A stretch of 64,000 nucleotides of DNA. Source: Escherichia coli. Lineage in GTDB: Bacteria; Pseudomonadota; Gammaproteobacteria; Enterobacterales; Enterobacteriaceae. Shown piece by piece: positions 30,801 to 33,800 of the stretch. Position 1 is the stretch's first letter; each line of letters opens with the position of its first letter. Made by a program: the position numbers. Location: NCBI RefSeq assembly GCF_041248615.1, contig NZ_CP158426.1. The stretch is one strand, 5' to 3'.

Positions 30801-33800
30801 TTTAGTGTGCTGGATATGGTGTTGATGGGCCTGGCCCCCACCATAGGCGCTTTTTCCGTTCCCGGTAAGCAAGAACGCCTGAAAGCAACGGAGCAACTGG
30901 AAAAGCTGGGCATTTTGCATCTGGCGACACGACGCTGGAATACGCTTAGCGGCGGTGAACGTCAGCTGGCTTTAATCGCCCGTGCACTCGTCCAGCAACC
31001 GCGCTTGTTATTACTGGATGAGCCTGCCTCCAGCCTCGATTTCGGTCATCAGATCCAACTACTGGACACGCTGGCGCAGCTCAAAAATAACGGCATGACA
31101 ATGCTAATGTCGACTCATCATCCGCTCCATGCCAACGCCATTGCCGACAGCATTATCCAGGTAGAGCCAGATGGACGAGTAACACAAGGCTTACCGACCG
31201 AACAGTTAACAACGAACAAACTGGCTGCCCTGTATCGGGTTTCTGCCGACCAGATTCATCATCACCTCTCTGCAATTAGCCACTAAGGAACAATCATGCT
31301 CATTGATGATATTGATTTTGCGGACCTTTACCTGCAGCAACTCAAACTGGCCCACCGCACAGAAAAAACGCCGGATCACTGGGATCAACGGGCGGAAAAA
31401 ATGGCGGAAAATTGCGCCTCGCCTACGGACAGCTACCTGCAACAACTGACCGCTAAAATTGATCTGCAAGGCGCGCAGACCTTATTCGATATGGGCTGCG
31501 GACCGGGTACCGTATCGCTGGCGCTGGCTGACAAACTCACGACGATTTATGGCGTTGATTACAGTCAGGGGATGCTGAAGGTTGCCGCCCGTCGCGCCGC
31601 CGCGCTAAAGGCAGACAATGTCCACTGGATCCAGCGCGCCTGGGAAGAGGACTGGAGTGACCTGCCACGCTGCGATATTGCCGTGGCTTCCCGCTCCACT
31701 CTGGTGGCTGATATGCGCCAGGCAATGAGCAAACTGAATAATCAGGCACGGCTTCGCGTCTATACGACTCATCTGGTCAGCACCTCGTTCGTCTCTCCAG
31801 CCATTCAGCGGGCGGCTGGTCGGGAAGTGATCGAATTACCCAACTATATCTTTGCGCTCAACGTCCTGTATCAGATGGGAATTTATGCTCACGTTGATTT
31901 TATCCGTGGACAAAATTGCCAACAGGATAACAGCACCTGGGAACGTTTTGAGCAGAACGTCAGCTGGAGTCTGGGCGCGCTTAACGACGATGAGCGTGAG
32001 CGGTTATATCGCTGGTATCAACAACAAGATGCTCGTGCCCTCGCCCCTGCCAGCCGCGACTGGGCGCTCATCTGGTGGGATAGCGTACCGCAAGAGGCAC
32101 TGCGATGATTTTCCTTTCTCAGGCACAAATCGATGCGTTACTTCTGGAAGATATCCAGGGCGGTGACCTGACCACGCGAGCATTAAATATTGGACACCAG
32201 CATGGCTATATAGAGTTTTTTCACCGTCAGGGCGGCTGCGTCAGCGGAATTTCTGTCGCGTGTAAGATGTTAACTACGCTGGGATTAACTATTGATGACG
32301 CGGTCAGCGACGGTTCACAAGCGAACGCGGGTCAGCGGCTAATCCGTGCGCAGGGTAATGCCGCAGCACTTCATCAGGGATGGAAGGCAGTCCAGAATGT
32401 GCTGGAGTGGAGTTGCGGTGTTTCTGATTATCTCGCTCAAATGCTGGCGTTACTTCGTGAACGTTACCCTGATGGCAATATCGCCTGCACCCGAAAAGCA
32501 ATTCCGGGCACCCGCTTACTGGCCTCGCAGGCAATTCTGGCTGCCGGAGGACTGATTCATCGTGCCGGATGTGCGGAAACCATATTATTGTTTGCCAACC
32601 ACCGTCATTTTCTTCATGACAATCAGGACTGGTCAGGCGCAATCAATCAGTTACGTCGCCACGCACCCGAGAAGAAAATAGTTGTTGAAGCCGACACGCC
32701 GAAAGAGGCAATCGCCGCGTTACGCGCGCAACCAGACGTACTTCAGCTCGACAAATTTAGTCCGCAACAGGCAACTGAAATTGCGCAAATAGCACCGTCG
32801 CTGGATCCTCACTGCACGCTGGCTCTGACCGGTGGAATTAATCTGACAACTCTCAAAAATTACCTCGACTGCGGCATTCGCCTTTTTATTACCTCCGCGC
32901 CTTATTACGCGACACCAGCTGACATTAAAGTCAGTCTGCAACCCGCAGCCTCTATTTAATTCTTTGTTAAACGGAATTTATTCTATGAGACTCAAAAAAC
33001 GTTATCTCTGCACAGCATTATCACTTGCCTTTACCCAGCAGGCCGTAGCGGCTCAGGAGAGTGACACGCTGACCGTATGGTCCAGTCCGGTATCATCGAC
33101 GACGACCACCGTTCTCGATCAACCCACCATGAAGGCCCTGGATAAACAGAATGTCGCTCAGGCATTAAGTGTCGTCCCCGGCGTGGTGCTGCAAAAGTCA
33201 GGCAGCCGCAACGAAGAACAGGTAAAAGTTCGTGGCTTTGATAGTCGGCAGGTGCCGGTCTATTTCGACGGTGTGCCCATTTATGTTCCCTATGACGGCA
33301 ACCTCGATCTGGCGCGGATTCTGACCAACAATCTGGGGGCAGTCGAAGTTTCCAAAGGGTATTCGTCGCTGCTTCAGGGGCCTAATCAGATGGGCGGAGC
33401 CATTAATATCACCACCCAGAAGCCAACAAAACCTCTGGAAGCAAATCTGGGATATCGCCAGGGATGGAGCCGTAGCCAGGACAATGCCTACGATATGCAT
33501 GCTTCATTTGCCGCCAGCAGCGATCTGGGGTATTTGCAAGTCAGCGGTAGCCAGCTAAAGCAGGATTTTCTCGGCCTGCCGCATGGTGTAAATAATGATA
33601 TTGCAGGCAAACACGGTAAGATGATTAATTCATCGGCTGATGATAAACGCGGCATTGTGAAGCTCGGTTTTACACCACGCGAAAACGATGAATACACATT
33701 GACTTACATTAAGCAGGATGGTGAAAAAGATAACCCGCCATACAGTGGAAATAGTGGTCAAAAATCACGCTACTGGCAGTGGCCAGAGTATGACAAAGAA

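Follow-up and report, generated by a model that had tools for sequence, protein, structure and literature searches.

To our knowledge, molybdenum (Mo) uptake in Enterobacteriaceae is usually framed as the work of ModABC and unspecific sulfate carriers only. Some operons of the ModABC type, such as those of Rhodobacter capsulatus (TIGR01334, TIGR01581), also carry modD, whose mutation in R. capsulatus reportedly had only a mild phenotype; a loose link to Mo transport is part of the description of the ModD family. The closest described importer to the one considered here is MolBC-A (HI1470-HI1472) of Haemophilus influenzae, a low-affinity ATP-binding cassette (ABC) importer of type II for molybdate and tungstate whose molB gene is repressed by molybdate (PMC4031551). 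In strain Rd, modA, molCBA and modD-salX-cysU form one cluster, in which modD adjoins molABC (PMC3928620). Here we describe a six-gene cassette in a 64,000-nucleotide stretch of an Escherichia coli genome (contig NZ_CP158426.1 of assembly GCF_041248615.1; hereafter the window). Its parts belong to known families; what appears new is the cassette itself, its predicted control by ModE and a Mo-linked family of TonB-dependent receptors. We consider the cassette quite probably to be a TonB-energised route of Mo or tungsten (W) acquisition that has been misannotated as an iron system.

An initial annotation of this DNA had singled out a class I S-adenosylmethionine (SAM)-dependent methyltransferase (MT) and a NadC-like ModD protein, encoded between the ATPase and receptor genes of an import operon, and had remarked that enzymes are unusual in operons of the Btu/Fec/Fhu type, a point that holds. 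Both open reading frames (ORFs) are present and match their Pfam and TIGR01334 models. The cassette comprises six plus-strand genes between treA (26492-28192) and ymgE (35005-35292, minus strand), preceded by two predicted control elements:

28458-28463, plus strand: TTGACA, -35-like hexamer of the operon's predicted promoter, seen by inspection of the sequence; putative promoter function
28481-28504, no strand: predicted ModE operator, palindrome CGCTATATG-TGTAAG-TATATAGCG, by consensus match
28529-29551, plus strand: periplasmic substrate-binding protein (SBP), Peripla_BP_2 / BtuF-FhuD class, start as in RefSeq
29551-30531, plus strand: FecCD-family permease of a type II ABC importer, MolB-like
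30528-31286, plus strand: ABC ATPase, MolC-like, 252 amino acids (aa), without a C-terminal TOBE domain, start fixed by the GTGA overlap
31296-32108, plus strand: class I SAM-dependent MT, 270 aa, Pfam Methyltransf_31/25
32105-32959, plus strand: ModD, NadC/quinolinate phosphoribosyltransferase (QPRT) fold, 284 aa, TIGR01334
32985-34955, plus strand: TonB-dependent outer-membrane receptor, 656 aa, plug and barrel domains, TonB box DTLTVWSS

The translational coupling proposed for the genes between ATPase and receptor is visible at their junctions. The permease stop and the ATPase start share the GTGA at 30528-30531; the TAA of the ATPase gene is followed by 9 nucleotides (nt) containing AAGGA and then by the ATG of the MT gene at 31296; the MT and ModD genes overlap by ATGA (32105-32108); and between the ModD TAA at 32959 and the receptor ATG at 32985 there are 25 nt. 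The same six genes are present in the RefSeq annotation of an O157:H7 genome. A mechanical ORF list allows longer starts for the ATPase (30390, adding 30390-30527) and the SBP (28487, adding 28487-28528), and we favoured the shorter starts at 30528 and 28529, which fit the GTGA overlap, agree with RefSeq and are consistent with where the ModE box lies.

The operon is very likely a member of the ModE regulon, as judged from its operator and the conservation of that operator; control by Mo had no place in the initial annotation. The E. coli ModE consensus is ATCGNTATATA-N6-TATATANCGAT (PMC545781). The palindrome at 28481-28504 departs from CGNTATATA-N6-TATATANCG at 1 of 16 core positions, a degree of match that no shuffle of the window attained (0 of 100), and it lies 25-48 nt 5' of the SBP ATG. 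For a positive control we used the region upstream of K-12 modA, which contains a site with 2 mismatches to the same pattern, 20-43 nt 5' of the modA ATG; the cassette box thus fits the consensus better than the modA site, in the same geometry. A perfect TTGACA lies 17 nt 5' of the box, so that the box would cover the -10/start region, the geometry expected for repression. A scan for promoters and terminators gave counts no higher than those of shuffles, and a 'terminator' called at 28480-28505 was dropped, being the ModE palindrome itself.

To assess conservation, one genome per species was scanned with a ModD alignment, yielding 71 loci. The order SBP-permease-ATPase-MT-ModD-receptor was held in 51 complete cassettes with 44-99% protein identity, which argues that the arrangement has been selected rather than assembled by chance. 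These cassettes came from Escherichia, Citrobacter, Raoultella, Enterobacter, Klebsiella indica, Serratia, Pantoea and Erwinia, as well as from Pectobacterium, Affinibrenneria, Proteus, Providencia and Morganella. A ModE box (at most 3 mismatches, within 150 nt 5' of the SBP gene) was present in 46 of the 51, its start lying a median 51 nt from the start codon, while 990 kb of flanking DNA contained 6 such boxes elsewhere. When the upstream regions of 18 loci from different genera were aligned, conservation was confined to two blocks, the ModE box and a TTGA in -35 position. In 26 cassettes, those of Proteus, Providencia, Morganella, Pectobacterium and some Serratia, a second box lies between ModD and the receptor gene; in these lineages the receptor gene is probably a ModE-controlled transcription unit of its own. 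The spacer between ModD and receptor is also longer there.

Similarity searches against solved structures place the importer closest to MolBC-A. The best solved relative of the permease is HI1471 (MolB), at 222.8 bits (E 6e-65; 43% identity over 313 aa), ahead of FhuB (175 bits), HmuU (168 bits) and BtuC (146 bits), and the best single-domain solved relative of the ATPase is HI1470 (MolC), at 126 bits. A modD gene is likewise close by in both systems, as a neighbour of molABC in strain Rd and within the operon in the cassette. Unlike MolBC-A, the cassette adds a TonB-dependent receptor, a SAM-dependent MT, an in-operon ModD and a canonical ModE operator, and its SBP barely resembles MolA. The best solved relative of the SBP is an unnamed binding protein, 4pag (96 bits). 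Its N-terminus, MSLTRRRFTQ, is a twin-arginine signal (window 28529-28600), and the [ST]RRx[FL] motif recurs in the SBPs of 16 of 17 cassettes examined; the SBP is therefore probably exported folded by the twin-arginine translocation (Tat) pathway, to judge from this motif.

The receptor family, too, appears from its genomic settings to be linked to Mo beyond the E. coli-type cassette. The TonB box is conserved among the cassette receptors, and homologues in Shewanella (58% identity) and Pseudomonas aeruginosa (45%) each lie behind a ModE-type palindrome. The Shewanella cassette has the order ModE box-SBP-FecCD-ATPase-MT-ModE box-receptor, without ModD, and its boxes have 0 mismatches 5' of the SBP gene and 1 mismatch 5' of the receptor gene. 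In P. aeruginosa a variant palindrome, CGTTATGTA-N6-TGCATAACG, lies 15-38 nt 5' of the ATG of the receptor homologue. Next after this receptor come a secreted Oxidored_molyb protein of 182 aa, moaA, a gene for a rotamase and narIJHG; no dedicated ABC importer adjoins it. The receptor gene runs into the start of the gene for the 182-aa protein (L093 9977-10525), whose product has only a partial Oxidored_molyb domain. A metagenomic variant (L086/L087) has the order receptor-DUF2478-SBP-FecCD-ATPase-MT, again without ModD; a related palindrome, of variant ModE type in L086, lies upstream. The DUF2478 protein of this variant, encoded between the receptor and SBP genes (L086 3556-4101, L087 2894-3439), matched no NCBIfam family.

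TonB-dependent receptors for metals other than iron have precedents: ZnuD serves zinc, and OprC/NosA serve copper. As in those cases, the cassette pairs a receptor under a non-iron metal regulator with an inner-membrane ABC importer; unlike in those cases, the regulator would be ModE. We found no description of a receptor for Mo in the literature searched.

These features can be assembled into a working model. With ample molybdate, ModE-molybdate would bind the palindrome over the -10/start region and transcription would be repressed, whereas under Mo scarcity the operon would be expressed. The TonB-dependent receptor would then carry a Mo species across the outer membrane, and the Tat-exported BtuF-class SBP would hand it to the MolB/MolC-like type II importer. 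In the cytoplasm the MT and ModD would handle the incoming material. We suggest that ModD is a descendant of NadC that has become specialised for Mo importers, that its retained basic pocket, of the phosphoribosyl pyrophosphate (PRPP) type, may accept or sense the oxyanion at the exit of importers whose ATPase has no TOBE domain, and that the MT may act on a small molecule entering by the cassette route, whether this is a ligand or a toxic analogue of an oxyanion. The sequences show the genes and their coupling, the operator and how widely it is conserved, the likeness to MolB, the residue pattern of ModD and the genomic partnerships; from these we infer repression by ModE, Mo as cargo and the roles of both enzymes.

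Of the two enzymes, the MT appears from its distribution to be the tighter partner of the transporter. It has a Rossmann-type fold, a SAM-binding motif I (DMGCGPG) and an acidic residue after strand 2, as expected of class I, and its fold neighbours are small-molecule methyltransferases. The family is narrow, with 169 matches at E <= 1e-5 confined to Enterobacterales, Shewanella and a few others. Three lineages have the MT together with transporter and receptor, namely Enterobacterales, Shewanella and the metagenomic L086/L087, and ModD is absent from those of Shewanella and L086; because the MT accompanies them even without ModD, the core of the system would seem to be transporter, MT and receptor under ModE. 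Pairs of MT and ModD without a transporter were seen in several Edwardsiella species, Leminorella and the metagenomic loci L088/L089. We considered whether MT and ModD form a free-standing module and set the idea aside: in E. tarda a remnant of an ABC ATPase is fused to the MT and full-length receptor homologues are also present, which points to a reduced cassette, and the Edwardsiella pairs probably derive from one.

ModD is firmly a member of its own family, scoring 503.6 bits on TIGR01334 (cut-off 178.85; model positions 1-277), and reaches only 135.1 bits on the nadC model TIGR00078, under its cut-off of 198.4. No solved ModD structure was found. Its AlphaFold2 model (pLDDT 96.7) aligned by Foldseek with the best solved QPRTs at TM-scores of about 0.86-0.89 and 22-26% identity. 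We compared 101 ModD sequences with the NadC proteins of E. coli, M. tuberculosis (Mtb) and 5hul. Like NadC (EC 2.4.2.19), ModD keeps the fold and the Gly-rich phosphate loop, and retains T129-R130-K131, H152-R153, E195, D216 (D/E) and G243. Unlike NadC, it has an altered base pocket: K172 (Mtb; K171 in human), a Lys in all three NadC references, is replaced by F163 in 95% of ModDs; the Glu next to R105 by W93 in 86%; an Arg by K94 (77% K, 21% R); a Met/Leu by Q214 in 97%; and an Asn by K217 in 87%. In human QPRT, H160, R161 and K171 contact the carboxylates of quinolinate and nicotinate mononucleotide (NaMN) (PMC4726147). E. coli also carries a separate, genuine nadC. On this residue pattern ModD reads as a NadC-derived protein and not as a second quinolinate phosphoribosyltransferase.

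One further residue feature was specific to ModDs of receptor-type cassettes, which carry HRxGC(A/S/G)ET with a near-invariant Cys156 (residues 152-159; window 32558-32581) in the loop whose human QPRT counterpart serves as the substrate lid; the corresponding sequence in NadC and in the remaining ModDs is HRLGLSE/D. We rejected the idea that Cys156 tracks the presence of the MT, as the relation is not strict: the residue is Ala in L088 and Thr in Leminorella.

Outside the cassette, ModD keeps the company of oxyanion importers. The arrangement modA-permease (TIGR01581)-short ATPase-ModD occurs with ModE boxes in Yersinia alsatica and Cedecea, and also at metagenomic loci. In fusion proteins (the P0143, P0148, P0167 set) a ModC/WtpC-like ATPase domain, in which no TOBE domain was detected, is followed by ModD; the same set includes a truncated ModD followed by Mop domains in one protein, possibly a chimera of gene calling. 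At a metagenomic locus the order is TOBE-modABC-modA2B2-ModD-TonB receptor-ModE, and at one further locus ModD adjoins tatABC and a FeMo-cofactor family gene. The cassette thus shares with ModABC + ModD operons the ModD family, the ModE boxes and the position of ModD behind a short, TOBE-less ATPase or in fusion with it, whereas in those operons the binding protein is of ModA type, the permease is of type I, and receptor and MT are absent. From these associations ModD would appear to be an add-on common to the cassette and to ModA-type importers.

Taken with the operator, these results suggest that the two enzymes probably belong to a ModE-controlled, Mo-starvation operon that acquires Mo (or W), and not to an iron/siderophore system. 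The public annotation reads otherwise, calling the proteins 'iron ABC transporter substrate-binding protein' and 'TonB-dependent siderophore receptor', and the components are indeed of FecCD, Peripla_BP_2 and TonB-receptor families, with weak matches of the receptor to siderophore and haem subfamilies. The receptor nevertheless scores under the cut-off for every named NCBIfam receptor family (126.4 bits against 223.5 for siderophore, 126.1 against 316.85 for haem). A consensus search found no Fur site with at most 3 mismatches near the operon, the best Fur matches upstream of the 51 cassettes averaged 11.8/19 compared with 11.3/19 in shuffles, and the boxes that are conserved there are those of ModE; an iron-siderophore or haem importer is accordingly highly improbable. 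We give even less credence to an importer of corrinoids or another tetrapyrrole with a tailoring methyltransferase. The best NCBIfam match of the MT, a weak one, is to the corrinoid-protein-associated methyltransferase CpaM (43 bits; cut-off 180) and the permease does resemble BtuC, but MolB matches it much better, the receptor falls far below the cut-offs of the BtuB models (79 against 599.7 and 70 against 836), and no cobalamin riboswitch or other Rfam family was matched in 27800-35500 at E <= 1. The initial annotation had itself hypothesised that the imported ligand is a heterocyclic chelator of the pyridine-carboxylate or a related type that is methylated or phosphoribosylated after uptake, the latter by ModD with PRPP in the manner of NadC with quinolinate, and had proposed inspection of the ModD active site as a check. 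That inspection gave a mixed answer. The QPRT fold is there, as are the TRK, HR, E195, D216 and G243 residues that hold carboxylate and PRPP in QPRT; the lysine that contacts quinolinate is gone, the Glu next to R105 is Trp in most ModDs, and the protein falls under the NadC cut-off. The partners and fusions of ModD elsewhere are importers of ModA/ModB/ModC type without an organic ligand, the Shewanella and L086 cassettes have no ModD, and the regulator is predicted to be ModE. Because its partner importers carry a bare oxyanion, phosphoribosylation of an imported organic chelator by ModD is unlikely, and a pyridine-carboxylate cargo very unlikely. A weaker form of the proposal, possible modification after uptake of whatever enters by the cassette route, survives for the MT only, which accompanies the transporter in three lineages.

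As cargo we favour a bare molybdate or tungstate oxyanion, which has in our estimation about an even chance, because of the MolBC-A precedent, the other partners of ModD, and the P. aeruginosa receptor without an ABC importer of its own. An organic Mo complex is possible, though we hold it less probable; it is suggested by the receptor itself, the divergent SBP and the tightly linked MT. A specific version of it is a Mo-chelate ('molybdophore') pathway, in which receptor and SBP import an organic Mo complex and the MT, perhaps with ModD, disables or recycles the ligand to leave molybdate; this adapts the chelator proposal of the initial annotation to Mo. Bulky chelates are the usual cargo of TonB-dependent receptors and of type II ABC importers, the SBP is distant from MolA, the MT is linked to transporter and receptor in Enterobacterales, Shewanella and L086/L087, and the small-molecule fold neighbours of the MT would suit such a role. 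Against it, MolBC-A, the closest importer yet characterised, has the bare oxyanion as its cargo; MT-ModD pairs occur without any transporter in several Edwardsiella, Leminorella and L088/L089; and the lone P. aeruginosa receptor homologue fits a cargo that ModABC can take over. We regard this pathway as rather doubtful. The same doubt attaches to the wider proposal that the ModE-controlled receptor family of Enterobacterales, Shewanella and Pseudomonas imports an organic Mo species (molybdophore or pterin-like) that MT and ModD process, freeing or activating Mo, which would make it the first dedicated outer-membrane Mo receptor system.

Several points weigh against Mo acquisition by the cassette, or against its oxyanion form. 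ModE governs non-transporter genes too, so a ModE box is no proof that Mo is the cargo. The SBP matches MolA (HI1472) weakly (E 1e-7 over 74 aa), which leaves an oxyanion site in the SBP unsupported. A TonB-dependent receptor and a dedicated MT exceed the obvious needs of free molybdate, favouring an organic Mo complex, and a TonB-energised cassette suggests scavenging at low concentrations, unlike the low-affinity MolBC-A (dissociation constant, Kd, ~100 uM). The roles we suggest for ModD and the MT follow from their genomic association. Finally, the full-text literature searched yielded no account of the cassette, of its control by ModE or of a TonB receptor family linked to Mo.

Mo enzymes (nitrate, formate, dimethyl sulfoxide/trimethylamine N-oxide and tetrathionate reductases/dehydrogenases) power the anaerobic respiration by which Enterobacteriaceae are able to bloom in the inflamed gut and urinary tract. 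If TonB-energised Mo/W scavenging is indeed the function of the cassette, the cassette would be a candidate for shaping both fitness when Mo is limiting and tungstate sensitivity, would open the orphan proteins ModD and MT to experiment, and would correct a widespread annotation. A study of Proteus mirabilis ModA infers an unidentified second Mo system (PMC10174112). The cassette is also found in Proteus, as in Providencia, Morganella, Citrobacter and Serratia. It carries the annotation of an iron transporter, and on the same condition it would fill a gap in Mo acquisition.

The window is E. coli chromosomal DNA. The 6.7-kb query 28300-35000 is 100% identical to NZ_LT599825.1, and 2139 of 5426 complete E. 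coli genomes (~39%), O157:H7 among them, carry the cassette when presence is called at >=80% coverage of the query; the K-12 lineage has the small gene ycgY at its site instead. Many related bacteria of the gut have the cassette as well. Scaffold 1 of Affinibrenneria salicis holds two whole cassettes (L040, L041) about 770 kb apart, with equal identities to the E. coli proteins.

In E. coli FDAARGOS_1264 (NZ_CP069488.1) the cassette is broken by the IS66-family element ISEc23, and the match falls in two pieces over 9.2 kb. Signs of decay were seen in some lineages. Citrobacter koseri has no recognisable permease and a degraded SBP gene, Providencia alcalifaciens BIGb0506 and Pluralibacter gergoviae each have a disrupted ModD, and the treA gene adjoining the cassette is annotated as frameshifted in the O157:H7 genome. 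The only Fur-box-like site of the window, GAAAATGATAACCAGTATC at 17440-17458 (3 mismatches), lies far from the cassette. Last, a 3.2-kb contig from a Collinsella sp. metagenome-assembled genome bin (JAIJJM010000374.1) carries ATPase, MT and ModD genes 99-100% identical to those of E. coli, and its label is most likely a binning error or contamination.

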